Shown here one piece after another: positions 7,331 to 48,365 of a stretch of DNA of 64,000 bases (position 1 is its first letter; the number at the start of each line of letters is the position of its first letter). Under the pieces are notes generated by a model that was not told where the DNA came from, did no database searches, and saw nothing but the letters and a program-made list of their open reading frames with translations. Source of the stretch: Rhodospirillales bacterium (lineage in GTDB: Bacteria > Acidobacteriota > Terriglobia > Bryobacterales > Bryobacteraceae); the NCBI GenBank assembly GCA_050261015.1, contig JBLNCW010000003.1, forward strand, positions 12,295 to 76,294. The letters are read 5' to 3'. A program made the position numbers and the translations under genes.

Positions 7331-8005
7331 ATGTTCACCTGGATCTGCCCGAAGTGTGGGAAAGAAGTTCCGCCGTCTTATTCGGACTGCCCCACCTGCG
7401 ATGTAAAGGAGCAGTCCGCCCCGGAACAAGCGGCTTCCCCGCAAGCGGCTCCTCAGCAAGCGGGTTCTGCAGAAGCGGTTGCGCCGCCAAAGGCGCCCCA
7501 ACCGGCGCTTCGGGCACGGCCGCAGCGCCGCCGCGTTCCCGCCTGGCTCTTGACCATCGTGTCCGCGGCCGTATTCGTCGGCGTGGGTGTTGGAACTTTT
7601 ATGCTGTTCCGCGCTCCGCGGGAAGAGCCGGCCCAGGCCGCACAGGCTGCCGCGGCTGCCCCGGCGTTTGAAACCCCTGCGCTCCAGCAGGCGGCGGCGC
7701 AGATCAACCCCGCCTACCGGCACGTGGAACTGACCGGCCTGCGCCTGATGGAAGAAAAACGGAGGGTGTTTCTGCAGTTTGTGCTGGTGAACCATTCAGC
7801 GATGGACCTTGGCGATCTGTCTTCTAAGGTCGATATCAAGTCGATCAAAGCCGGCCCGGCGGACCCGCCCATTGGAACGTTCGAATTCAAGACTTCCCTC
7901 GGCCCCTACGAGGCGAAAAACCTCAAGGTGCCGGTCGACACCAAGCTGCGCGCCTACGAACTGCCGGACTGGCAGTTCCTCCGCGCGGAAATCAAGGGGC
8001 AGTAA
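7331..8005 (+). CDS. hypothetical zinc-ribbon membrane protein
   Basis: AGGAAG lies 5 nt upstream of the ATG. The N-terminus CPKCGKEVPPSYSDCPTC is a CxxC..CxxC ribbon. It is followed by a Pro/Ala/Gln-rich linker, one TM helix (WLLTIVSAAVFVGVGVGTFMLF) and a C-terminal globular part. Confidence 0.6.
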   Translation: MFTWICPKCGKEVPPSYSDCPTCDVKEQSAPEQAASPQAAPQQAGSAEAVAPPKAPQPALRARPQRRRVPAWLLTIVSAAVFVGVGVGTFMLFRAPREEPAQAAQAAAAAPAFETPALQQAAAQINPAYRHVELTGLRLMEEKRRVFLQFVLVNHSAMDLGDLSSKVDIKSIKAGPADPPIGTFEFKTSLGPYEAKNLKVPVDTKLRAYELPDWQFLRAEIKGQ

Positions 8006-8085
8006 GCGCCCCAGGCTTGTCCGTTTTGCCGCCCGCAACTCAGGCCCGGGGACGGGGTTCAATATAAGCAGGGGGGCATCCAGCC

Positions 8086-8700
8086 ATGCGGTTTCAGTGC
8101 AGCCTTGCCGCCGCGCTTCTAATCTGCGGAACGGCGTGTGCCCAGGTAATCCCAAGGGGAACGCACCTGCTCCTGCGGATGGTGAATTCCGTGAGCACGC
8201 GGACCGCGCAGGAGGGCGACTACGTTTACCTGCGGACGGCGAGTCCCATCACGGACGGAAACCGGATCGTCGTGCCGGTAGGCTCATACGTGCAAGGAGT
8301 CGTGGGCCACGTACAGCGAAGCGGCAGGGTGAAGGGGCGCGCGGCCCTCGGAATCCGGCTGGAAACACTCACTCTGCCCAGGGGCAAGGTGGTGCGGTTT
8401 TCGCCGCGCCTCGATTCCCTGGACCCGAATGAAACCGGCCAGCAGGTCGATCGCGGGCAGGAAGTAGTCAGGCAGGCCCCGGGCGTGGGCGGCGACACGG
8501 CGCAGATCGTGATTCTCGCCGGCAGCGGCGCGGCGCTCGGCGGCATTGCGGATCGCGGCTGGGAGGGAGCGGGCATCGGAGCGGGCGTGGGCGCCGGGGT
8601 CGGCATTGCTACCGTGCTGCTCACGCGCGGCCGCCCGGTCGAACTCCGGCGCGGCTCCACGCTTGACGTCGCGTTCGACCGGGCGGTGGAACTCCGTTAG
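8086..8700 (+). CDS. hypothetical secreted protein with C-terminal glycine-zipper segment
   Basis: Signal peptide MRFQCSLAAALLICGTACAQ. The C-terminal GIGAGVGAGVGIATVLL is glycine-zipper-like. I recognise no family. Confidence 0.55.
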   Translation: MRFQCSLAAALLICGTACAQVIPRGTHLLLRMVNSVSTRTAQEGDYVYLRTASPITDGNRIVVPVGSYVQGVVGHVQRSGRVKGRAALGIRLETLTLPRGKVVRFSPRLDSLDPNETGQQVDRGQEVVRQAPGVGGDTAQIVILAGSGAALGGIADRGWEGAGIGAGVGAGVGIATVLLTRGRPVELRRGSTLDVAFDRAVELR

Positions 8701-8711
8701 CGCGCGGGAGG

Positions 8712-9560
8712 CTAGGCGTCCAGCAGCTTCCGTGCGAATGACAGGTTGCGACGCAGGTCGTTCTCAATGTTGCCCGAAGGCGCCGAGGTCTCCAGCATGG
8801 CGTACCCCGTAAAGCCGATCTCGTTGATGGCCCGCATCACCGCGGGAAAATCGACTTTGCCTTCTCCCATGTATCCCCTGTCCTTGAAGTGGAACTGGCA
8901 GATGCGGTCCTTGCCGAGCCAGCGGATCTCCTTCGGCGCATCATACCCGCCCTGGTTGGTCGCGTTGCCGACGTCGTAGTAAACCTTGAGCGCATTCGAA
9001 CCGACGCGATCGAGCACGCGCGCGCTTGTTTCGGCCGGCAGCGTGTTCTCAAACCCCAGAATCACGCCCGCCTTCTCGGCCGCCGGCGCGAGTTCCTTGA
9101 GCGCAGCCGTTACGGCGTCCAGTTCCTGCTCATTCGTGTTAGCCAGCGCGCACTTGCCGAAGAACACCAGCATCAGAATCTGCGCGTCCAGTTTGCGCGT
9201 GATTTCGATGCCGTCGCTGACCCATTTCTTCGCCAGCTCGTCGTTCTTCAGGCAGTTGACGTGGAGGATGTCGAGGTAGGTGGCGCCGATCGGCATCTTG
9301 TGCCGCCTTGAGGCGGCGAAATACGCGCCCTGCAGGCCGGGGTTGGAGAGCGGCAGCTCGCCTCCGGGCCTCGCCCTGCCGATGGTGATCTGCAGCCCTT
9401 CAAAGCCGAGGGCGGCCGCCCGCTCCACGGCCTCTACTTTTCCCTCAAGCTTGAAGCAGCCGTCCATCACGCCTATGCGCAGTCCTGACTTCTTCCCGGC
9501 GGCATGGCCGCCAAGGGCCGCCGCCGCGGTGGCGGCGAGCATCGTTCTCCTGGTGAGCAT
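8712..9560 (-). CDS. sugar phosphate isomerase/epimerase (xylose isomerase-like TIM barrel), Tat signal
   Basis: The N-terminus TRRTMLAATAAAALGG is Tat-like. The body (ILGFENT..., FHFKD...GEG.VDF) is typical of the AP-endonuclease-2/xylose-isomerase-like fold. Confidence 0.75.
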   Translation of the reverse strand: MLTRRTMLAATAAAALGGHAAGKKSGLRIGVMDGCFKLEGKVEAVERAAALGFEGLQITIGRARPGGELPLSNPGLQGAYFAASRRHKMPIGATYLDILHVNCLKNDELAKKWVSDGIEITRKLDAQILMLVFFGKCALANTNEQELDAVTAALKELAPAAEKAGVILGFENTLPAETSARVLDRVGSNALKVYYDVGNATNQGGYDAPKEIRWLGKDRICQFHFKDRGYMGEGKVDFPAVMRAINEIGFTGYAMLETSAPSGNIENDLRRNLSFARKLLDA

Positions 9561-12240: not shown

Positions 12241-14667
12241 TCAATTCAAAATGGCGCGGAGCATGGCGGCCAAAGTCGCCTGTTCCGCGCCGTTCAACTT
12301 TCTTCCATCAGCAGTCACATAGAATACGTCAACTGCCTTGTTCCCCTGAGTGTCGATCAGCGCAAGCTCGATGTTAGCGCCCGCCGATGAGATCGTCGAG
12401 GCCAGGTCATAGAGCAGACCCGGGCGGTCTTCCGCCACCACCTCGATCAATGTAGCTGTCTGGGAAGCCGCGCCGTCGAACGAGACTGCCGGGTGCACGC
12501 GCGGCCGCTGGCCCGAAAAAGGCCTGGAGCGGCTCGGCGGCTTCACCCCCGCCTTTCCGAGCGCCACCCGCTCCAGCAGAATCCGGAGCCTGTCCGCCTC
12601 CGAGGGATTCAGTTCGAGCGTGCGGTGGGGATCGGAAAAAACGAACGTGTCAAGAATGGCGCCGTGGCGATTGGCGAAGCCCTCCATCTTGAGTATGTTC
12701 ATTCCGAAGCCCGAGAGCGCGCCCGCCAGCGAGGCGAGCAGCGACGGCCGGTCGCGCGCCACCAGCCTGAGCCGGTAAAATCCGTTCTCCTTGCGAATAT
12801 CGAGAGCCACGCCGCGCTCGCGGCTGCGCCGGTCCAGTTGCAGATCGGCCGCAATCTCGGACTCCGAATGCGTGCGAAGGTAGCGCACCGGAAAGCCTTC
12901 CAGAAACTCCGCCCGGTCCGGCGCCCCTGGAAGCCGGTCCTCTTCCAGTTCCCTGGTGAGTTCGTTGTACACGGCCAGATAAGCGCACCAGAGCTGCTCC
13001 GTGCGCCACGGGCTGAGAGCGGTGGGATTTACCGCGCCGATGTCCGCGAACGTGAGCAGGGCGAGTTTCTTCGCCAGTTCGAGCGTTCCGGCGCGGCCGG
13101 CCAGCATCCGCGCCGTGCCCGGCTCGTCCAGGTCCCGCGACGCCATCGCGATCGAGAAGTCCAGGTGGCGGTCGATGAGCAGCCGCACGTCCCGGCGCTG
13201 GTTTTCGGGCACGCCGAGGCGTTCCATCGCCGCTTCCGCCAGCCGCACGGATTCGGCAACGTGCGGTCCCTCGGGTTTCGCCTTTCCCAGATCGTGCAAC
13301 AGCAGCGCCAGCCACAGCGTCGCCGGATCGTCCACCTCCGCCAGCAGCCCGGCGAAGCGCTGCTTCAAGGGGTCCTGCGGCGGCGAGTACAAGTCCTCCA
13401 GGATCTGAACGGCCACCAGCGTGTGCTCGTCCACCGTGTACCGATGGTAGAAGTCGCGCACCACCAGGCAGTCGATTTCCTCCCACCCCGGCAGCAGCGC
13501 GTCGAGCACGCGGGTCTGATGCATGAGGCGAAGAGCGAGGGCGCGGTGCTGTCCTTCGAGAATTTGCCTGAACTCCCCCCAGAGATAGATGCGCCGCTCG
13601 GAGAAGCAGCGCCGCAGCGCCGGCAGATAGTTCGCGATGCGTAGGTCCGTCTCCGGCGCCAGCCGCAGCCCGTGGCGCGCGACGAATTGAAACAGGCGCA
13701 GCGCCAGCTCGGGCTCATGCTCGAGCCGGTGCGGCTCGCGAAAATAGACGCGCTCGCGTGAGACAGAGAACTCGGCGTTGGAGACGCGCGACCGCCACTG
13801 TTTGAACTGCACCAGCAGCGTACTGGCGCGCTCCTCGGCCAGGTCCAACTCGCGCGCCGCGGCGCGATGGATTGCGCGCGCGTGCCCGTAGTATTCGCGC
13901 ATCCAGACCGAGGGATCCACACCCGCGTGCGCGGCCGCTTCCTCCTGCAAATCGAAGGTAAGCAGATTGGAGTCCCTGCCGATGCGCTGGTGCAGGTGGA
14001 AACGCAGCTCGGTGAGAAAATCGCGCGCAGCCTCGAGCCCGGCGGGGACCTCCGGCGGCGGGAGCCGGTCCGGCGAACAGTTGCGCAGTTGTCCGAACCA
14101 GCACACCACCTGGTAGTCGCGCAGCCCGCCCGGGCCGTCCTTCACGTTCGGTTCGAGCTGGTAAATCGAGCCGCCGGCCTTCAGATGCCTTTCGCGCGCC
14201 AGGTGGCAAAGCCCGCCGGCAATCGCCTGCCGCTGCGCGTGAACGAAGCGGGCAAACGCGGCGCTCAGGCGGTCGAAAAGGACGCGGTCGCCCGCGAGGT
14301 ACCGGTGGTCCAGAAGGCTGATGCTCAGCTCGACATTGCCATCCTGCACCTCGCAACATTCCGATGGCGTGCGGACCGAGTGGCTGACGCGCAGCCCGCC
14401 GTCCCACAATTCCTGAAGGAACCTGGAAATGGCCGGCCTCTGCCCCTCGGCGAGCGACTGGCGCTCCACCACCAGCAGCAGATCGACGTCCGAGTGCGGA
14501 AACAGCTCGCGGCGGCCGAAGCCTCCGACGGCGAGCAGCGCGATCCCCTCCGGCATGAGCGGGCGGAGAAAGCGTTCATACGACTCTACCGCCAGCCGCT
14601 CCACCAGTGAGGTTCGTCTGAGCAGCGCCTCGCGAGCGCTAGAGGGCTGCTTCCCCGCGGTCGTCAT
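12241..14667 (-). CDS. glnD: [protein-PII] uridylyltransferase/uridylyl-removing enzyme
   Basis: 808 aa. It has an N-terminal nucleotidyltransferase motif (GGFGRRELFPHSDVDLLLV), an HD domain (LLHDLGK) and two C-terminal ACT-like segments. It is adjacent to a PII gene. Confidence 0.9.
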   Translation of the reverse strand: MTTAGKQPSSAREALLRRTSLVERLAVESYERFLRPLMPEGIALLAVGGFGRRELFPHSDVDLLLVVERQSLAEGQRPAISRFLQELWDGGLRVSHSVRTPSECCEVQDGNVELSISLLDHRYLAGDRVLFDRLSAAFARFVHAQRQAIAGGLCHLARERHLKAGGSIYQLEPNVKDGPGGLRDYQVVCWFGQLRNCSPDRLPPPEVPAGLEAARDFLTELRFHLHQRIGRDSNLLTFDLQEEAAAHAGVDPSVWMREYYGHARAIHRAAARELDLAEERASTLLVQFKQWRSRVSNAEFSVSRERVYFREPHRLEHEPELALRLFQFVARHGLRLAPETDLRIANYLPALRRCFSERRIYLWGEFRQILEGQHRALALRLMHQTRVLDALLPGWEEIDCLVVRDFYHRYTVDEHTLVAVQILEDLYSPPQDPLKQRFAGLLAEVDDPATLWLALLLHDLGKAKPEGPHVAESVRLAEAAMERLGVPENQRRDVRLLIDRHLDFSIAMASRDLDEPGTARMLAGRAGTLELAKKLALLTFADIGAVNPTALSPWRTEQLWCAYLAVYNELTRELEEDRLPGAPDRAEFLEGFPVRYLRTHSESEIAADLQLDRRSRERGVALDIRKENGFYRLRLVARDRPSLLASLAGALSGFGMNILKMEGFANRHGAILDTFVFSDPHRTLELNPSEADRLRILLERVALGKAGVKPPSRSRPFSGQRPRVHPAVSFDGAASQTATLIEVVAEDRPGLLYDLASTISSAGANIELALIDTQGNKAVDVFYVTADGRKLNGAEQATLAAMLRAILN

Positions 14668-17060: not shown

Positions 17061-18152
17061 ATGAACGTACGAAGGAAACTTCTGGGCATCCCACGCCGTT
17101 TTCGTGAAGCGAAGATGTTTGCGCGCGCCATGCAGTTTCCGCGGCGCCCGGTTCTCGCTCACATCGTTCCCATGCGCCGCTGCAACCTCGCATGCGCCTA
17201 TTGCAACGAGTTTGACAGCGTCTCCGCACCGGTGCCGCTGGATAGGATGCTGGCGCGCATCGACCGGCTGGCCGCCCTGGGCGTCAGCATGATCACCATC
17301 AGCGGCGGCGAGCCCCTGCTGCACCCCGATCTCGAACGCATCATCGCGCGTATCCGCGAGCGCGGCATCATTCCGACCCTCATCACCAACGGCTACCTGC
17401 TGACGCCGGAACGCATCCGCCGTTTGAACCGCGCCGGCCTGCACAATCTCCAGATCAGCATCGACAACGTGAATCCGGACGAGGTGTCGAAGAAAAGCCT
17501 GAAAGTGCTGGATCGCAAGCTGCAATGGCTGGCTGAATACGCCCACTTCGACGTCAACGTGAACGCGGTGGTCGGTTCCGGGGTCGGAGTCCCGGAGGAC
17601 GCGCTGACGGTGGCGCGGCGCGTGCAGGCGCTCGGCCTCAACATAACTACCGGCGTGATTCACGACAGCTCCGGCCAGGTGCGCCCTCTGGGCGCCCGCG
17701 ACCGCGCCGTGCTCGACAAACTCCACCGCCTCCGCAAACCGCTGTTCTCGTTCGTGCGGCACAACGGCTTCCAGCGGAACCTGATGCGGGGCCTGCCGAA
17801 CCACTGGCACTGCCGCGCCGGAAGCCGCTACCTGTATGTTTGCGAGGACGGCCTGGTACATTGGTGCTCGCAGCAGCGCGGCCGGCCGGGCGTTCCGCTG
17901 GAGCGCTACACGGCCGCGGACATCGAACGCGAGTACCACACCGAGAAAGCGTGCGCGCCCTTCTGCACCATTACCTGCGTCCACCAGATTGCCGTGCTTG
18001 ACAAGCTGCGCGAGATGCCGCGGGAAACGATCAGCGAACTGGTCGCCTCAAATCCCCCGCTCTCGGTGCGCGTACTCTCGTGGCTCTTCCTCACCAGCAG
18101 CAGCCGGCGCTGGTTCTCCAAAGCCGCTTTGAAGCTTTTGAGAACAGAGTGA
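17061..18152 (+). CDS. radical SAM protein with Cys-rich SPASM/twitch-like C-terminal domain
   Basis: The CNLACAYC (CX3CX2C) motif follows IVPMRR, and the GGEPLL SAM-binding motif is present. The C-terminal region has six more Cys (HWHC, YVC, HWC, KAC, PFC, ITC). An alternative start exists at 17115. Confidence 0.8.
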   Translation: MNVRRKLLGIPRRFREAKMFARAMQFPRRPVLAHIVPMRRCNLACAYCNEFDSVSAPVPLDRMLARIDRLAALGVSMITISGGEPLLHPDLERIIARIRERGIIPTLITNGYLLTPERIRRLNRAGLHNLQISIDNVNPDEVSKKSLKVLDRKLQWLAEYAHFDVNVNAVVGSGVGVPEDALTVARRVQALGLNITTGVIHDSSGQVRPLGARDRAVLDKLHRLRKPLFSFVRHNGFQRNLMRGLPNHWHCRAGSRYLYVCEDGLVHWCSQQRGRPGVPLERYTAADIEREYHTEKACAPFCTITCVHQIAVLDKLREMPRETISELVASNPPLSVRVLSWLFLTSSSRRWFSKAALKLLRTE

Positions 18153-18215
18153 AGCGCGGGTATTCCTGCTAGCAGTTTCCGGCAGAAATGAAGATTAAAA
18201 CATGATACTCTTCGA

Positions 18216-19361
18216 TTGTTTGACCATAGCACCGCCATGACGGTCACAATCGAGAAGTTTTTCGAAACGCAAAACACGCCTTCTCAGGTCAAGTCCGCTA
18301 TTGCTAGCAACTACTTCGGCGCGTGGGCCACGATTATGACGAAGCGGGCCGGCAAGCGTGTCATAGGCTATGCAGACCTGTTCGCCGGACGAGGTCGGTT
18401 CGACGACGGCTCAGAGTCCACACCGCTCATCATTGTCAGGCGGGCGGTTAACGATCCGGCACTCAAAACTGCGCTGAAGACATTCTTCAACGACAAGAGC
18501 GCGGACGAAATCGCCACCCTTGAGCGGGAAATCGGTTCCATACCTGGCATTGAAGGGCTCTTGTACGCGCCAAGGTTTTGGAGTGAGGCCGTTAGCGCGC
18601 AGATAATCAGAAAGGTAACGGATTTCCGTTCGGTTCCAACGTTCCTCTTTGCCGATCCCTTCGGATACATGGGGATTTCTCTCAAACTGATCAAGCTGCT
18701 GTTGGAGAACGAAAAGAGCGAGGCCCTGATCTTTTTCAATACGAACCGAATCAATGCAGGTCTAAGCAACGAGTTCGTTCGTGAACACATTGACGCGCTG
18801 TTCGGAGCCCGGCGCGCTGAAGCCGTCCGCGCAAAGGTCGCCAGCCTGCACGGCGCTGACAGGGAGCGGGTAGTTCTGGACAGCTTCCAGGATGGCCTGA
18901 AGGGTATCGGGTTCAAGTATGTCCTCCGATTTCGTTTTCTCTCCCGCTGCGCGGACCGGACCAGCCACCATCTGATCCACTGCTCCCGGCATCCGCTTGC
19001 CGAGAAAATTATGAAAGAGGTGATGGATCGATATAGCGTCAAGAGCTTCGATGGGATACCGCTTTTTGAAATCCCGCATGAGGATTTCGGGCAGGGATCG
19101 CTTTTCGAAAAACCACTGCCGCCGGTCGGCCTTGCGGAAGAATTGCTGCGCGTCTTTGCGGGAAAGACTCTCACGTTGCGGGAGATTGTGCACCGTCACA
19201 GCCCAGGCACACCGTACGTCGCGCGGAATTACCGTGCGGCGCTGTCGTACCTCATCGAGCAAGGGAAGGTCTCGTGCGATCCTTCTGCCGCGACGATGCG
19301 CTTCAGGCAAGGCAAGCGAATCTGGCCGGCGCGAACCCGGTTCACATTTCCGGCACAATAG
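18216..19361 (+). CDS. three-Cys-motif partner protein (TcmP-like); methyltransferase-fold-like
   Basis: 381-aa ORF, with an alternative start at 18237. DLFAGRG (18375..18395) resembles SAM-MTase motif I. FADPFGY (DPF at 18654..18662) resembles motif IV (DPPY/F). The overall N-terminal pattern and its position directly upstream of a DUF5131 gene match my recollection of TIGR04474. Two hand-counted 60-nt rows are about 45-47% GC, against about 73% in a row of the neighbouring rSAM gene. Confidence 0.65.
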
Positions 19362-19372
19362 AAAGAGCGCCC

Positions 19373-20128
19373 ATGGGATTGAAATCAGCAATCGAGTGGA
19401 CAGAATCGACGTGGAATCCGGTCACGGGCTGCGACAAGATCAGTCCCGGTTGCAAGAACTGTTACGCCGAGAGGATGGCCCTCCGGCTCCAAGCCATGGG
19501 ACAGCCGAACTACGTAAACGGTTTCAAACTGACGCTCCATGAGCACACTCTGGAACTCCCCCTGCGCTGGCGAAAACCGCAAATGATTTTCGTCAACTCC
19601 ATGAGCGACCTTTTCCACAAGGACGTCCCCATCGAATTCATCCGCCGCACGTTTCGATTAATGCGCGAGGCCTACTGGCACCGTTTCCAGGTGCTCACGA
19701 AACGATCGGAAAGACTTGCGGCGGTGAGCGCCGAGCTAGACTGGCCCGAAAACGTCTGGATGGGTGTCAGCATCGAGACGGACAAGTACTGCTTCCGTGC
19801 CGATCATCTTCGCCGGACCGGCGCCCGGGTGAAGTTTCTCTCGCTCGAGCCGCTCCTCGGACCGCTCCCTAGCCTGAATCTATCCGGCATCAATTGGGTG
19901 ATTGTCGGAGGAGAGTCAGGACCCAAAGCCAGGCCGATGAGAGAGCAATGGGTCCTGGATATCCAAGCCGCATGCGCGGAAGCCGGGGTGGCCTTCTTTT
20001 TCAAGCAATGGGGAGGCTCCAATAAGAAGGCGGCCGGACGCATGCTCCGAGGGCGCACGTACGACGAAATGCCCCAGTTAGCAGAACCGGTTCAGAAACA
20101 CCCGCGTGAACTGCGCGTAGTGGGGTAA
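19373..20128 (+). CDS. DUF5131 / phage Gp37-Gp68 family three-Cys protein
   Basis: The N-terminus [27 protein letters not shown] is the hallmark of this family (Cx6Cx2C at 19430..19462). Also present are ...[10 protein letters not shown]..., ...QVLTKR..., ...[11 protein letters not shown]..., and ...[13 protein letters not shown]...FFFKQWGG. The start is 11 nt after the TcmP-like stop. Confidence 0.8.
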
Positions 20129-20140
20129 GCCTCCCGCCTC

Positions 20141-21190: not shown

Positions 21191-22555
21191 CTATAAACGG
21201 ATGGGCTCCGGCCCGTGAACGACCGTCTTCGGGGCCACCCGCTCCGGCCCATGCTCGATTTCCCGGGCCGTCAGGAACAGAAAGAGAATGCCGAGCAGAG
21301 CGTACAGCCCCATGAAGCCGATCAACGTAAACAGCGTGTTGCCTGCCGAAACGTGACCCGACGGACCATCGGCGGTTCGCATCAGCCCGTAGATCAGCCA
21401 CGGCTGCCGCCCGACCTCCGCGGTGGTCCACCCCGCGGTATTGGCAATGAATGGGAAGGGCAGCGCAAGCATGATCACCCAGAGCCACGCCCGCGCCGTG
21501 TACAGACGTTTCTTCCACAGCAGCACGACCGACACGAGCGACACCGCGATGAAAATAGTGCCCAGCCCCACCATGATGCGGTAGCTGTAGTACAAGAGCG
21601 GGACGTTGTCAGGCAGGTCCTCCTTACGGAAGGCGTCCATGCCCTTGACCTCGGCCTCCCACCGCTTGTAGGTAAGGAAGCTCAGCATGCCCGGGATCAC
21701 GGCCGGGTTATCCAGCCTGCGCTTCTCGGTATCCGGCTGCCCGAGAATCGCCAGCGGCGCGCCCCCCTGCGTTTCGAAAAGCCCTTCCATGGCTGCCAGC
21801 GTGGCCGGCTGATGGTGCGCTACGTTATACCCCTGGCGGTCGCCGGTGGGAAACAGCATCAGCACCGACGCCACGCACCCCGCGATCACGCCGACCCGCA
21901 GGAACGTCCGCCCGTACTCCTCGAACTTCCGGCTCACCAGGTAGAACGCCCCCACGGAAGCCATTAAGAAGCTGCCCGTCACAACCGTTCCGATCATGGT
22001 GTGGGCGTACATCCAGCCGAGCCAGGGGTTCAGCAGGAGCGCCCAGAAGCTCTCCAGCACCAGGTTGCCGTCGGAAGCTATCTTGTACCCTACCGGGTGC
22101 TGCATCCAGGCGTCCGTCGCGACAATGAAGAAACCGGAAAGCCACGTCCCGACGAGCATCAGCAGCGAGACCGCCCAGTGCGCCCGGGCGCTCAGCCGCT
22201 TTTCGCCGAACAGCAGCAGCCCGAGAAACGTGGACTCCAGAAAGAACGAAAATACCCCTTCCATCGCAAGCGTCTGGCCGATGACCCCACCGGCCGCCTT
22301 CGAAAACTTCGCCCAGTTGGTTCCGAACTGGAATTCCATCGGAATCCCCGTAACGACGCCCAAGGCGAAGCCGATAGCGAAAAACTTAATCCAGAACCGC
22401 GCCGCTTTGTTGTAGTGATCGTTCCCCGTTTTGAGCGCCATTGTCTTCAGCACGAAGATCAATAGCGCCAGACCCATGGTCATCTGGGCAAAAACGTAAT
22501 GGAACGTAATTGTGAATGCGAAGTGCAATCGGTGGAGGGTCAGAACGGAATCCAT
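21191..22555 (-). CDS. cydA: cytochrome bd ubiquinol oxidase subunit I
   Basis: It starts LHRLHFAFTITFHYVFAQMTMGLA and carries a GWTTAEVGRQPW (Q-loop/periplasmic) motif. Confidence 0.92.
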   Translation of the reverse strand: MDSVLTLHRLHFAFTITFHYVFAQMTMGLALLIFVLKTMALKTGNDHYNKAARFWIKFFAIGFALGVVTGIPMEFQFGTNWAKFSKAAGGVIGQTLAMEGVFSFFLESTFLGLLLFGEKRLSARAHWAVSLLMLVGTWLSGFFIVATDAWMQHPVGYKIASDGNLVLESFWALLLNPWLGWMYAHTMIGTVVTGSFLMASVGAFYLVSRKFEEYGRTFLRVGVIAGCVASVLMLFPTGDRQGYNVAHHQPATLAAMEGLFETQGGAPLAILGQPDTEKRRLDNPAVIPGMLSFLTYKRWEAEVKGMDAFRKEDLPDNVPLLYYSYRIMVGLGTIFIAVSLVSVVLLWKKRLYTARAWLWVIMLALPFPFIANTAGWTTAEVGRQPWLIYGLMRTADGPSGHVSAGNTLFTLIGFMGLYALLGILFLFLTAREIEHGPERVAPKTVVHGPEPIRL

Positions 22556-22570
22556 ACCCGAAACTCCCCT

Positions 22571-22582
22571 TAATTCGAATTA
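22571..22582. promoter_or_regulatory. 12-bp perfect palindrome TAATTCGAATTA just 5' of the cydA Shine-Dalgarno
   Basis: Read directly. On the minus strand the order is TAATTCGAATTA-AGGGGAG-N7-ATG(cydA). A second inverted repeat, TATCCGC (22581-87) / GCGGATA (22623-29), lies in the same divergent region. Confidence 0.25.
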
Positions 22583-22671
22583 TCCGCGAAAATACATTCG
22601 ATGCTGCTAACAGGCTTAAGGATGCGGATATCCTCGACGCCCGCGGCTGGGCCGGAATCCCACCGGGTACA

Positions 22672-24216
22672 ATGAAAAATCCTGTGCTCAAGAGACTCTG
22701 GACCGGCAGACCGGATGCCGCAGCCGTCTTGATCATCTCCCTGGTATTTGGGATCAACGTGTACCGCGCCTGGACGCAGTCCTTCACCGCGGACGAAGCC
22801 TACAGCTATAATCTATTCATTTCAAAGCGTTTCTCGAACGTTTTCGCGGACTACAATGCGGGAAACCACGTCCTGCAATCCGCCCTCTCCAAGGTTTCCG
22901 CCAACCTGTTCGGGCTTTCCGAGTTCACGCTTCGGCTGCCCACCCTGCTGGGAGGGCTGCTCTACTTCGTCTCGGCCTTCCGGCTCTCACGATTTCTGTT
23001 CGGTGGCGGCTGGCTGGCGGTGCTTTCGGTGGCGTCTCTCTCGCTGAACCCCTTCATTCTGGATTACCTGTCGGCCGCGCGCGGCTACGGGCTGGGGCTC
23101 GGATTCCTGCTCTGGGCGGTGTACCACCTGCTGCTGTATTTCGAAGATTCGAATCAACTCCGGTTGTACAAAGCCGGCCTGGGTCTGGGCCTGTCGGTTT
23201 CCTCGGTGTTGATTTACCTGTACCCGGCAGTCGCCCTGCTGGCGCTGGTGGCGGCGATTCTGGTGGCCGACGGGGCGCTCAGTTCCCGGGACGAGGCCAA
23301 ACGCCGGTTCTGGTTCGCGGTGGACCAGTTCGCCGGTCCCGCCGCGCTCACAGCTTTCCTGATCCTGGTGATTCCGCTGAGCCGGGCCGCGCCTGAACAC
23401 TTCTATTACGGGACGGACAACCTGGACACCTTCGTCAAAAGCCTCACCCGCCCCTCCCTGTTCCATACGTTGAACGTGTACGCCATCATCAGGCACGTGC
23501 CGGGATTCATGTGGTGGGAGACGGCGGTGTACCGTGTCGTGATACCGGCGGTTCTTGCGGCCCTGGCGGCGCTCGCAATTCTGGCCGCGAGGAAATGGCT
23601 TTGCCTGCGGCGGTTCGACTCGCTCGACCGCAACGAGCGCGCCCTTCTGCTCATCGCAGGCGCGATCGCCTTGTCGCTGGTGATGATGATTGCAAACCAT
23701 CTGCTGTTCGGCGTTCCCTACCTGTTGAGCCGCACGGCGATCTTCTTCGTGCCGCTGTTTACACTGGCCGTGATGCTGCTTATCGCCCGGCCCGAAAGGC
23801 CGCTTGCGATTCCCGCGCTGGCCTTCGCCGTCTGGGCCGTCGGAATGTTCGCCGCCGGCTTCAACGCCGGTCATTACACCGAGTGGAAATACGACCGCAA
23901 CACCAAAACCGTCATGCGAATGCTCAAGCAGCGAAACAGCGCCGGGCGCGAGGTGCGGATGGGCGTGCACTGGCAGTTCGAACCGAGCGTCAATTTCTAC
24001 CGCCGGCTCTACCGCCTGGACTGGCTTAAGCGGGTGGACCGCAGCGGGCCCGACGGCGATTTCGATTACTACTATCTCGGCTACACCGATACCGGGCTTG
24101 TCGAGAAGCGCAGACTGCGACCCCTGCTGACCGATGCCGAGGCGCAGGTCATATTCGCAGTCAGGTCGTCTGAGACACAGCCCGAGTCCCAGCAGCATGC
24201 TTCAACGACTCCATAA
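22672..24216 (+). CDS. polytopic membrane glycosyltransferase (GT-C fold, ArnT/PMT-like)
   Basis: About 12 hydrophobic segments. The first-loop acidic motif FTADEAYSYN matches the DE motif of GT-C enzymes, and there is a C-terminal soluble domain. The start is at ATG 22672 (MKNPVLKRLW); the upstream part of the track ORF overlaps the cydA start region. Confidence 0.6.
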   Translation: MKNPVLKRLWTGRPDAAAVLIISLVFGINVYRAWTQSFTADEAYSYNLFISKRFSNVFADYNAGNHVLQSALSKVSANLFGLSEFTLRLPTLLGGLLYFVSAFRLSRFLFGGGWLAVLSVASLSLNPFILDYLSAARGYGLGLGFLLWAVYHLLLYFEDSNQLRLYKAGLGLGLSVSSVLIYLYPAVALLALVAAILVADGALSSRDEAKRRFWFAVDQFAGPAALTAFLILVIPLSRAAPEHFYYGTDNLDTFVKSLTRPSLFHTLNVYAIIRHVPGFMWWETAVYRVVIPAVLAALAALAILAARKWLCLRRFDSLDRNERALLLIAGAIALSLVMMIANHLLFGVPYLLSRTAIFFVPLFTLAVMLLIARPERPLAIPALAFAVWAVGMFAAGFNAGHYTEWKYDRNTKTVMRMLKQRNSAGREVRMGVHWQFEPSVNFYRRLYRLDWLKRVDRSGPDGDFDYYYLGYTDTGLVEKRRLRPLLTDAEAQVIFAVRSSETQPESQQHASTTP

Positions 24217-25903
24217 GCGGTTGAACGCCGCTGTTGGCCGCGGGCGGCGGTGCTGGTTCTGGGTTGCCGTGGCCCTCCTCCTCGGCGCGATGGGCACGGC
24301 GCAGGTCACCTCGGCGCTTCAGGAAACACAGACCTGGGACGAGGCCATCCACATTGCGGCGGGCTACTCTTACCTGAAGACCGGCGATTACAGACTAAAC
24401 CGCGAACACCCTCCCCTTTTCAAGCTGCTGTCGGCAGCGGCGCTCCTCCCGCTCGATCCGGCGCTGCCGCTCAACAGCGAAGCCTGGAGGAAGGCGGACG
24501 GCGTCGAATTCGGCGATCTGTTCCTCTACAAGAACCGCGTCCATCCGGAAACGATGCTGTTCCTCGCTCGCGCCGTCATCATTGCGCTTACGCTCGCGCT
24601 GGGGCTCGCGCTGGCCCTGTGGACACGGCGGAAGTTCGGCCCCGCTGCCGGCATCGCGGCGCTCTTCCTGTTTGCCTTCGACCCGAACCTGATCGCGCAC
24701 GGGCATTACGTCACCAGCGACCTCGCCGCGACCGCCTTCATATTCCTCGCGATCCTTGCTTGGGAACGTTACCTTCAGACCCTGCGGCGGCGCGACCTGG
24801 CCGTCTCCGGCATCGTGCTCGGGCTTGCGCTGATCAGCAAGTTTTCCGCCGTATTCCTGGTGCCCGTTCTCGCGGTCTTGTACTGGCTTCGCCGGTGGCA
24901 ATTGGGGCCCGGCCGGCTGTCGCTGCGCCGCTTCGCCGCCGCCTCGGCAACCGTTGGGGTCATCAGCATTGCCGTTGTCGCGCTGGCTTATGGCCCCGAG
25001 TCAATCCGCTGCTGGAGCGGCCCGAAACTCAGGCAGGTCGTGGACCGCTCCACTATCCCCGGCGAAGTCCTCTTCCAGACCGGGAAACGCCTCGGATTGC
25101 CCGCCCACCCATACCTCGCCGGCCTCTCCGATGTCGTAGTCCACAACAAGATTGGGCACGACGCCTATCTCATGGGAATGCAGTCCCGTAAAGGCTGGTG
25201 GTATTACTTCCCGGTGGTCTTCGCGGTCAAGACGCCGCTCTCGGTGATTGCGCTGCTGGCCCTCTCAATAGCTATCGGGCTGCGCCCGGCAAACCCGCTC
25301 AAAATCCCGTTCCATTGGATCGTCCTGCTGCTCCCCCCGCTCGTGTACTTCGCATTCTGCATGAGCAGCAACATCAACATCGGCGTGCGGCATCTGCTCC
25401 CCGTGTACCCGTTTCTGTACGCCGCAATTGCCGGCGCGATCGCAGGCGCCGCCCGCCGCTGGCGCATTCTCTCCACCGCGCTGATGCTGGTGCTGGTTAT
25501 CGAATCCCTGTCGATCCACCCTCACTACCTGGCGTTTTTCAACGCCGCTGCCGGGGGTCCGGACAACGGGCCGAACTACCTCGTGGATTCCAATCTCGAC
25601 TGGGGGCAGGACCTCAAAAACCTCAAAAACTACCTGGACCGGAACGGCTTTGACAAGGTCTGCATCTGCTATTTCGGACGCTCCAGCATGGAGTTTTACC
25701 GGTTCGAGTATTCCGATCTGCCCAGAACCGATGAGCCGGAACGGCAGGCCGAAGCCGATTGCATCGGCGCGATCAGCGTCACCTCCCTGCGCGGCATTTA
25801 CGTCGGCGAGAACGCGTATAGCTGGCTGCTGGAGCGCAAGCCGATAGCGAAAATCGGCTATTCGATCTACGTATACGATCTGCGCAAACAGGCGCTCAGG
25901 TAG
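24197..25903 (+). CDS. glycosyltransferase family 39-like (phospholipid-carrier-dependent, ArnT/PMT family)
   Basis: TWDEAIHIAAGYSYLKTGDYRLNREHPPLFKLL is a typical GT39/GT83-like first-loop block. It is followed by many TM helices and a C-terminal domain ending YSIYVYDL. It overlaps the previous GT-C gene by 20 nt. Confidence 0.72.
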   Translation: MLQRLHKRLNAAVGRGRRCWFWVAVALLLGAMGTAQVTSALQETQTWDEAIHIAAGYSYLKTGDYRLNREHPPLFKLLSAAALLPLDPALPLNSEAWRKADGVEFGDLFLYKNRVHPETMLFLARAVIIALTLALGLALALWTRRKFGPAAGIAALFLFAFDPNLIAHGHYVTSDLAATAFIFLAILAWERYLQTLRRRDLAVSGIVLGLALISKFSAVFLVPVLAVLYWLRRWQLGPGRLSLRRFAAASATVGVISIAVVALAYGPESIRCWSGPKLRQVVDRSTIPGEVLFQTGKRLGLPAHPYLAGLSDVVVHNKIGHDAYLMGMQSRKGWWYYFPVVFAVKTPLSVIALLALSIAIGLRPANPLKIPFHWIVLLLPPLVYFAFCMSSNINIGVRHLLPVYPFLYAAIAGAIAGAARRWRILSTALMLVLVIESLSIHPHYLAFFNAAAGGPDNGPNYLVDSNLDWGQDLKNLKNYLDRNGFDKVCICYFGRSSMEFYRFEYSDLPRTDEPERQAEADCIGAISVTSLRGIYVGENAYSWLLERKPIAKIGYSIYVYDLRKQALR

Positions 25904-48275: not shown

Positions 48276-48365
48276 GGAGGAATGGCCGAGTGGTTGAAGG
48301 CGGCGGTCTTGAAAACCGTTAGGGTCGTAAGGCCCTCGGGGGTTCGAATCCCTCTTCCTCCGCCA
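48276..48365 (+). tRNA. tRNA-Ser (anticodon UGA), encoded CCA
   Basis: Folded by hand. The acceptor stem is GGAGGAA/TTCCTCC. The D-arm is GCC-GAGTGGTTGAA-GGC. The anticodon stem GCGGT/ACCGT carries the loop CT-TGA-AA. There is a long variable arm (GGGTC..GGCCC). The T-arm is GGGGG-TTCGAAT-CCCTC, followed by discriminator G and CCA. Confidence 0.9.

Follow-up and report, generated by a model that had tools for sequence, protein, structure and literature searches.

The 64,000-nt stretch of DNA analysed here (the window) covers positions 12,295 to 76,294 of contig JBLNCW010000003.1, from a bacterium deposited as Rhodospirillales and placed by GTDB in the Bryobacteraceae of the Acidobacteriota. 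Its segment 18155-20132 is a self-contained, horizontally mobile cassette of two genes, which encode a TcmP protein (three-Cys-motif partner protein) and a DUF5131 protein (phage Gp37/Gp68), and it corresponds to candidate PDC-M30 of the PADLOC database. The cassette has the following features, in which SAM stands for S-adenosylmethionine, wHTH for winged helix-turn-helix and L104 for a related metagenome contig that lacks the cassette.

18155-20132, + strand: whole inserted cassette (leader, TcmP gene, spacer, DUF5131 gene), bounded by the homology break against L104
18155-18236, + strand: AT-rich 5' leader, presumed promoter region, absent from L104
18237-19361, + strand: TcmP gene, 374 aa (381 aa from the alternative TTG at 18216), family TIGR04474
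18375-18395, + strand: methyltransferase motif I, DLFAGRG, SAM-binding glycine loop; D47, G51 and G53 invariant in 115 of 115 family members
18648-18668, + strand: motif IV-like FADPFGY (D-P-aromatic-G); D140 and P141 invariant in 115 of 115
19131-19286, + strand: C-terminal GMT-wHTH domain (PF22560, E = 6.8e-09, residues 306-357 of the 381-aa form)
19362-19372, + strand: intergenic spacer of 11 nt, AAAGAGCGCCC, read from the sequence
19373-20128, + strand: DUF5131 (phage Gp37/Gp68) gene, 251 aa, family PF07505, predicted to be radical-SAM-like
19430-19462, + strand: CX6CX2C triad C20, C27 and C30, putative [4Fe-4S] ligands, invariant in 79 of 79 homologues
19907-19921, + strand: GGESG stretch after strand beta6; G179, G180, E181 and S182 invariant in 79 of 79

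Both open reading frames (ORFs), 18237-19361 and 19373-20128 on the + strand, are intact. An earlier reading of this DNA from its letters alone (the sequence-only reading) had described two co-directional genes with a spacer of 11 nt, the second ending 12 nt from the stop codon of the convergent gene cydB, and the sequence bears out this layout. It had let gene 1 run from 18216 to 19361; the ORF stands, and the start is better moved to the ATG at 18237, which is likelier than the TTG at 18216 because a 100% identical database copy (P0001) has 374 aa and the homologues align from the ATG. For gene 2, a longer ORF starting with GTG at 19274 and overlapping gene 1 was dropped, as the homologues give it no support. 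DLFAGRG and the Cys triad had been placed correctly, while FADPFGY was rightly recognised but put at about 18651-18671 in place of 18648-18668, and FFFKQWGG, which had been taken for the end of gene 2, is internal (DUF5131 residues 208-215 of 251).

The GC content of the module is 56.9%, compared with a window mean of 63.4% (standard deviation 2.4% for segments of equal length). No other 1.9-kb stretch of the window is as low in GC: the 0.6% of segments with lower values all overlap the module. At third codon positions (GC3), the pair has 68% and 71% GC, against 82-85% in five neighbouring genes. The compositional anomaly suspected earlier is thus real, but not at the contrast of 45-47% to 73% that had been given for it: rows of 45-47% GC are present at 18601-18780, and they are extremes unrepresentative of the module. 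The leader is AT-rich (about 40% GC in the 60-nt row from 18181) and would contain the promoter, while a promoter and terminator scan gave nothing above shuffled expectation and no significant sigma-70 match in the leader. An imperfect direct repeat of 17 nt lies upstream of each gene (18176-18192, TTTCCGGCAGAAATGAA; 19347-19363, TTTCCGGCACAATAGAA). It was not kept as a meaningful element, since 14 of 17 matches is about chance level in 2.4 kb.

Profile searches place both proteins in the families that had been proposed for them. TcmP matches TIGR04474 with E = 4.1e-47 (161.3 bits against a cut-off of 53; profile positions 3-262 of 263), and DUF5131 matches PF07505 with E = 1.1e-100 (336.6 bits against a cut-off of 28.9; residues 5-234, profile 2-243 of 243). 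In PADLOC, the two adjacent genes match both component models of PDC-M30, A (TcmP, E = 1e-17) and B (DUF5131, E = 7.9e-117), and DUF5131 also matches PDC-M41B (E = 7.9e-122). In PHROGs, DUF5131 matches phrog_2045, whose function is unannotated, and no TcmP family was found. PDC-M30 and PDC-M41 are among 145 candidates, collected as genes lying inside BREX, DISARM and type I restriction-modification (R-M) systems, and these two were not tested there (Payne et al., bioRxiv 10.1101/2024.01.29.577857); they are also not among the eight candidates tested in a later study. The sequence-only reading had offered the pair as an undescribed system, which does not hold, as the pairing is named in TIGRFAMs and listed in PADLOC-DB v2. 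The window copy carries all family-wide invariant residues and shows no difference from the described TIGR04474 and PF07505 pairing. The embedding in type I R-M operons that defined the two candidates is independently seen in our loci (L024 and L026), whereas the copy in the window stands alone, without a defence system next to it. The family, of which the pair is a typical representative, is catalogued in TIGRFAMs, Pfam and PADLOC but functionally uncharacterised.

The boundaries of the cassette come from an empty site. L104, a 197-kb metagenome contig from the Joint Genome Institute (JGI), contains amtB, a response regulator gene, a radical SAM gene, cydB and cydA in the same order and orientation as the window, with flanking proteins 90-95% identical, and has neither TcmP nor DUF5131. 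Nucleotide homology between the two ends at 18154, 2 nt past the stop codon of the radical SAM gene, and restarts at 20133, 5 nt past the stop of gene 2; between these points L104 has an unrelated spacer of 206 nt in place of the 1,978-nt cassette. These breaks in homology show that the segment 18155-20132 came or went in one piece. The empty site in this close relative and the GC3 deviation of the pair directly support the horizontal acquisition that had been suggested from composition. Neither terminal repeats nor a recombinase were found at the cassette ends, and no integrase or transposase family was detected in the genes called over the 10 kb to either side. The only tRNA gene of the window is at 48276, so the remark that integrase, transposase and tRNA genes are missing next to the pair was correct. 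Elsewhere the pair occurs in unrelated neighbourhoods at 84% (L004) and 52% (L007) TcmP identity, and in one locus (L103) it is flanked by IS66 and resolvases. The window is a clean case of a recombinase-free cassette inserted into an intergenic spacer.

The gene directly upstream (17115-18152, + strand) encodes a radical SAM protein with a Cys-rich C-terminus (PF04055, E = 1.8e-22), for which no equivalog matched and 356 relatives were found in JGI metagenomes. It was considered as a member of the module and rejected: its GC3 is native, it is present in L104, and it is absent from all other loci. On the other side, a second low-GC dip (52-54%) was observed at 22200-22800 of the window, between cydA and the first of two PMT_2/ArnT-like glycosyltransferase genes (22516-24216 and 24134-25903).

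TcmP has the fold of a class I methyltransferase. Its AlphaFold2 model (predicted local distance difference test score, pLDDT, 88.9; predicted template modelling score, pTM, 0.87) contains a helical insertion and a C-terminal winged helix, and Foldseek against PDB gives 98 matches at E <= 0.001, with SAM methyltransferases making up 49 of the 50 listed, in agreement with the Rossmann fold expected for gene 1. The C-terminal GMT-wHTH domain, which the sequence-only reading had missed, was found in 29 of the 34 family members that were aligned. D47, G51, G53, P63, D140, P141 and M259 are invariant in 115 members, and an acidic residue (D or E) follows strand beta2 at position 86 in all 115. Judging by these residues, the SAM-binding apparatus of TcmP is intact. 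A JGI contig of 1572 nt (P0006) encodes a 447-aa product in which TcmP runs into the N-terminus of DUF5131; it was not accepted as a natural fusion, being probably a frameshift or an assembly error.

The relatives of TcmP among methyltransferases can be narrowed less well. None of the Pfam methyltransferase families matched the 34 TcmP proteins at E <= 1. The Foldseek matches are led by Trm1 (1.1e-05; 3axs, 2dul) and histamine N-methyltransferase (HNMT), with RlmJ (6qe5) fifth, at TM-scores of 0.31-0.39 and identities of 8-15%. Against viral structure models, the top match is a C5 DNA methyltransferase, and the TcmP profile gives a marginal colinear match to M.HhaI (E = 0.025) in PDB sequences as well as a match to RlmJ over motif I, so that the motif I stretch of TcmP is aligned with motif I of both. 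Trm1, RlmJ and C5 DNA methyltransferases such as M.HhaI share with TcmP the class I Rossmann fold and a motif I of the form D-x-F-A-G-x-G, and the motif order of TcmP is colinear with that of M.HhaI, whereas a C-terminal wHTH and an obligate radical SAM partner are found in TcmP alone. Motif IV of TcmP is D-P-[W/F/C]-G, to be compared with the NPPY type of N-methylation and with the PC and ENV motifs of C5-methylation. Position 142 is W in 79 members, F in 22, C in 13 and Y in 1, and the equivalent of the ENV glutamate is N168 in 112 of 115; in most TcmP proteins, the catalytic PC cysteine and ENV glutamate of C5 enzymes are thus replaced by W/F and N.

These matches lead to a first alternative, an RNA modification pair, in which TcmP would methylate an exocyclic amine in structured tRNA or rRNA and DUF5131 would elaborate it, in the manner of Trm5 and TYW1 (see below), a change that might protect from phage or toxin nucleases or sensitise to them. 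The best structural neighbours of TcmP, as far as a predicted model can tell, keep RNA as an alternative substrate: they are the tRNA m2,2G26 methylase Trm1 and the rRNA m6A methylase RlmJ, the latter aligning also over motif I, and the D-P-F-G form of motif IV is the catalytic motif of Trm1 too. However, the TM-scores are low and many unrelated class I methyltransferases score about equally, C5 DNA methyltransferases match TcmP as well, the enzymes that replace DUF5131 beside TcmP come from DNA-acting clades, and the genomic contexts of the pair are dominated by DNA-modification systems (see below). We consider an RNA target quite improbable.

For DUF5131, the residues invariant in 79 homologues are C20, C27, C30, D79, T109, K110, E159, G179-G-E-S182, R187 and K211. 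These homologues include solo copies from mycobacteriophages, Burkholderia phage phiE125, Rhodobacter phage RcapNL and the haloarchaeal virus PhiCh1. The family is very large and highly conserved, with more than 8,000 clusters (90% identity) at E <= 1e-10 in many phyla. In the AlphaFold2 model, which is of moderate quality (pLDDT 74), the protein is a partial beta/alpha barrel with seven strands alternating with helices, and the Cys loop (residues 20-30) lies between beta1 (12-15) and alpha1 (31-41), which is the position of the cluster loop in radical SAM enzymes. The modelled topology and loop position fit the radical-SAM-like barrel proposed earlier for gene 2, while the canonical CX3CX2C motif and PF04055 are lacking and the fold matches are weak. 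All of these weak matches are TIM-like barrels, including the radical SAM enzymes LipA/LIAS (lipoyl synthase), spore photoproduct lyase (SPL) and NifB. The GGESG stretch may take part in SAM binding, by analogy with the GGE motif of radical SAM enzymes.

DUF5131 gives a match of 6.5e-19, below the model's cut-off, to TIGR04471 (radical SAM mobile pair protein A). In RadicalSAM.org, the family forms Megacluster-5-2, beside SPL (5-3) and MJ0683-like proteins (5-1) (PMC9477430). SPL and the "SplB-like" families of PA0069 and Rv2578c are in the same megacluster, and they have in common with DUF5131 the Cys loop after beta1 and an "LTK" strand motif; they differ in having CX3CX2C spacing and about 340 aa, against CX6CX2C and 251 aa. 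Direct searches were negative: the window protein does not match PF20903 (SPL), and neither its sequence nor its profile found any PDB chain. DUF5131 is accordingly best described as a probable radical-SAM-like protein of non-canonical type from the SPL clade, which would bind an iron-sulfur cluster and cleave SAM.

In order to see how constant the pair is, we analysed the best 80 of at least 424 TcmP relatives, with one genome per species. These loci come from Planctomycetota, Acidobacteriota, Cyanobacteria, Chloroflexota, Poribacteria, Nitrospira, Myxococcota, Desulfobacterota, Alphaproteobacteria and others. In 78 of these 80 loci, TcmP and DUF5131 are no more than 500 nt apart, as had been expected of conserved neighbours. 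DUF5131 is downstream on the same strand in 61 loci (all gaps but one measure 9-120 nt), convergent in 12 (all cyanobacteria), upstream on the same strand in 4 and divergent in 1. The two exceptions are a contig that ends 212 nt past TcmP (L037) and a locus in which TcmP has a divergent radical SAM partner (L069). When all flanking ORFs were clustered, no other family occurred in more than 6 of the 80 loci, and the few recurrent ones reflect housekeeping synteny in Nostocales or R-M subunits. Since no third family recurs, the module consists of two genes only. Of the two, DUF5131 is the better conserved partner in 74 of 75 loci; the median identities to the window proteins are 56% for DUF5131 and 40% for TcmP.

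The prokaryotic viperins show that radical SAM enzymes can act as defence effectors, and a pair without a nuclease could likewise make an antiviral small molecule, DUF5131 modifying a free nucleotide and TcmP methylating the product or a precursor. But neither gene of the pair matches the PADLOC pVip models, to which only the unrelated upstream radical SAM gene shows a generic similarity; TcmP has a wHTH and a fold like that of nucleic-acid methyltransferases; and no kinase or nucleotide-handling gene is associated, as no third gene recurs. We regard this possibility as extremely small.

Generally TcmP is accompanied by DUF5131, but in rare loci another enzyme takes its place. In L069 (11126-11896), TcmP (213 bits, above the cut-off) is followed by a 256-aa partner with the motif GCSHGCLYPCYA, of CX3CX3C type. 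This partner passes PF04055 (41.1 bits, threshold 29.5), falls just short of PF07505 (25.4 bits, threshold 28.9), resembles the PA0069 and Rv2578c radical SAM families and aligns with the N-terminus of DUF5131 (E = 6.8e-05). In L013 and L014, TcmP (186 bits, above the cut-off) is preceded by a 352-aa protein with CPFKCAYC (CX3CX2C) that passes PF20903 for SPL (8934-9992 in L013). Comparison of DUF5131 with the L013 protein by hhalign gave a probability of 0.6%, with a low-diversity profile (Neff 1.75). Other members of this distant TcmP subfamily keep DUF5131. From these swaps and the rest of the subfamily, TcmP always goes with a radical SAM partner of the SPL-like clade, usually DUF5131. The link of DUF5131 itself to the radical SAM superfamily is indirect, running through the L069 partner, TIGR04471 and the RadicalSAM.org grouping.

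In a minority of loci, the surroundings of the pair are those of R-M systems. In L026, hsdM, hsdS, a DUF7380/DUF4209 gene, a gene for a 274-aa protein, TcmP, DUF5131 and hsdR follow each other on one strand with overlapping junctions, and L024 has the same layout of a type I R-M operon from hsdS onward. The pair also adjoins hsdR in L007 and hsdM plus hsdS in L046. Type III-like arrangements occur in L054 (Res-type helicase, TcmP, DUF5131, N6/N4 methylase) and in L022 and L032, where a Res-type endonuclease gene is directly upstream. Altogether, at least 10 of the 80 loci have R-M subunits within four genes, and at least 14 have them within 10 kb. Strong matches among the two neighbours on each side (35 loci) include MADS, Hma, HerA plus SIR2, DISARM DrmD, a DRT reverse transcriptase, BrxH and PDC-S39. 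The pair lies near a conjugative coupling protein in L047, in islets rich in toxin-antitoxin genes in L004, L009, L011 and L013, and in housekeeping spacers in the window and in L076 (7491-14516, a metagenome-assembled genome of Abditibacteriales), where it stands co-directionally between gyrB and gyrA. In S. meliloti, a TcmP gene adjoins, and is co-regulated with, the Hna defence gene hna (PMC12445080).

Three neighbouring proteins were recorded as observations of their own. The 625-aa DUF7380/DUF4209 protein within the R-M operons upstream of the pair (L026, 7044-9845; L024, 7545-9416) and the 274-aa protein that follows it in L026, which has no family match, are possible defence candidates. 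In L011, a 549-aa protein with a dCMP/cytidine deaminase domain (7791-9440) is encoded two genes upstream of the pair, with a HicA-domain protein nearby, and may be another conflict gene.

A two-gene mobile cassette with a methyltransferase-like protein and a second enzyme, moving as R-M systems do and occurring among them, could also be a selfish addiction module or a non-canonical R-M pair, in which DUF5131 damages unmodified DNA by radical chemistry and methylation by TcmP protects it. Several findings speak against this. Because DUF5131 is solo in 174 of the 179 phage records, and M. tuberculosis also has it alone as Rv2734, the protein is not inherently toxic when TcmP is missing; TcmP is the partner that is never seen alone in the census. 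Further, the restriction component of typical R-M systems is less conserved than the modification one, and here the putative restriction component, DUF5131, is the more conserved. A restriction endonuclease component was not found either, with no nuclease domain in either protein and no recurring third gene. Such a module seems very unlikely to us.

In phages, the paired form is rare. The 5 phage records with TcmP are three Gordonia phages; in phage Easley, the genes for an integrase and an HTH protein, gene 37 and DUF5131 are followed by the convergent TcmP, which is part of the lysogeny module and sits immediately downstream of the immunity repressor. A site beside the immunity repressor is the usual place of defence genes expressed by lysogens. 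IMG/VR contains 31 TcmP relatives in 2.9 million contigs, many of them near provirus ends. Solo DUF5131 genes of phages lie in early, replication and recombination regions, and in 3 of 5 records inspected a DNA methylase gene (N6/N4 or C5) is two to five genes away (L096, M. abscessus prophage prophiGD53-3; L099, Rhodobacter phage RcapNL; L100, Mycobacterium phage TChen). This methylase may be an alternative partner. The overlapping upstream genes phiE125 gp38 and TChen gp65 were tested as cryptic TcmP relatives and are not related. The phiE125 record (L098) notes that gp37 is similar to Rv2734 of M. tuberculosis, and Rv2734 is reported to belong to a mitomycin-C-responsive cluster with Rv2735c, recX and recA (PMC5057432), which hints at a DNA-damage link for solo DUF5131.

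The same cluster, together with the grouping of DUF5131 with the SPL clade, the ability of SPL-family and PA0069/Rv2578c-like enzymes to stand in for it beside TcmP, and the early, replication and recombination regions of its solo phage copies, would suit a module for processing or repairing DNA lesions: DUF5131 would use radical chemistry in the manner of SPL to reverse or process a lesion, which TcmP, as a base-flipping partner, would recognise. A housekeeping role of this kind does not predict the patchy, cassette-like distribution, the embedding in R-M operons or the prophage-repressor neighbour, and a pure lesion reader has no need of the invariant SAM-binding residues of TcmP. Repair is an unlikely explanation in our opinion, though one to be taken seriously.

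From the above, we propose that the cassette is a mobile, SAM-dependent module for a two-step base modification, probably of DNA, with a role in conflict with phages or mobile elements as the most likely one; the probability of this proposal as a whole is roughly 45%. In the proposed scheme, TcmP, with its SAM-binding methyltransferase fold and winged helix, would select the nucleic-acid target, most likely DNA, and would methylate a flipped-out base or hold it. DUF5131, as a non-canonical radical SAM enzyme of the SPL clade, would then perform a 5'-deoxyadenosyl-radical step on the base or on its methyl group. The logic would be that of wybutosine formation, in which the SAM methyltransferase Trm5 makes the substrate and the radical SAM enzyme TYW1 acts next. 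The analogy is conceptual: the pair has no homology to TYW1, and wybutosine belongs to a conserved housekeeping tRNA pathway and not to a mobile cassette.

DUF5131 would be the conserved catalytic core, working without TcmP in most phages, and TcmP a faster-evolving partner that supplies or presents the substrate or directs the enzyme to it. This division of labour is suggested because TcmP never occurs without a radical SAM partner while DUF5131 often occurs without TcmP, because DUF5131 is the more conserved of the two, and because TcmP keeps its SAM-binding residues and winged helix. DNA is preferred to RNA because of the kinship with the SPL clade, the R-M embedding and the DNA-damage link. 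The modification would either mark the DNA of the host or disable that of an invader. The sequence-only reading had suggested SAM-dependent nucleic-acid modification for self-marking or against phages, which fits all findings here and is unproven. What the analysis shows are the family memberships, the folds, the constant pairing, the mobility and the contexts, whereas cluster binding, SAM cleavage, DNA as the substrate, the sequence of the two steps and a defence phenotype are inferred.

Several points weigh against the proposed two-step modification. DNA as the substrate would follow only from the SPL-clade relationship, the wHTH and the contexts. The subclass of TcmP is ambiguous, with the RNA N-methylases Trm1 and RlmJ leading the PDB folds and C5 DNA methyltransferases appearing in the profile and viral fold searches; if TcmP derives from C5 enzymes, the catalytic Cys and Glu are replaced in most members, and methylation may not occur. 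For DUF5131, PF04055 gives no match to the window protein at E <= 0.01, the Cys spacing is not the canonical CX3CX2C, the confidence of the model is low over the Cys-loop region, and the Foldseek matches are non-significant (best E = 5e-3). The pair contains no nuclease or other obvious effector, most census loci, the window included, are not beside known defence genes, and phage DUF5131 is mostly without TcmP (179 against 5 records). No published experiment or functional study was found for TcmP, DUF5131, PDC-M30 or PDC-M41, which agrees with the statement of the sequence-only reading that neither family is known to have an assigned biochemical function.

The proposed modification could further amount to a new nucleic-acid chemistry. 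TcmP would present or pre-methylate a DNA base for DUF5131, and the product would be a novel hypermodification or a radical lesion that serves as an immune mark or weapon without a nuclease, with the solo DUF5131 of phages as a counter-measure or self-mark. We hold this extension to be doubtful, yet worth stating.

In summary, DUF5131 is one of the sizeable radical SAM groups without an assigned reaction. The pair is a good experimental target, as it has two small genes, needs no other component, comes with natural presence/absence variants and is found within R-M operons and next to a prophage repressor. If it modifies DNA, a radical-based DNA modification would be added to the known epigenetic and defence marks, and the frequency of the radical SAM half of the pair in phages would be accounted for.

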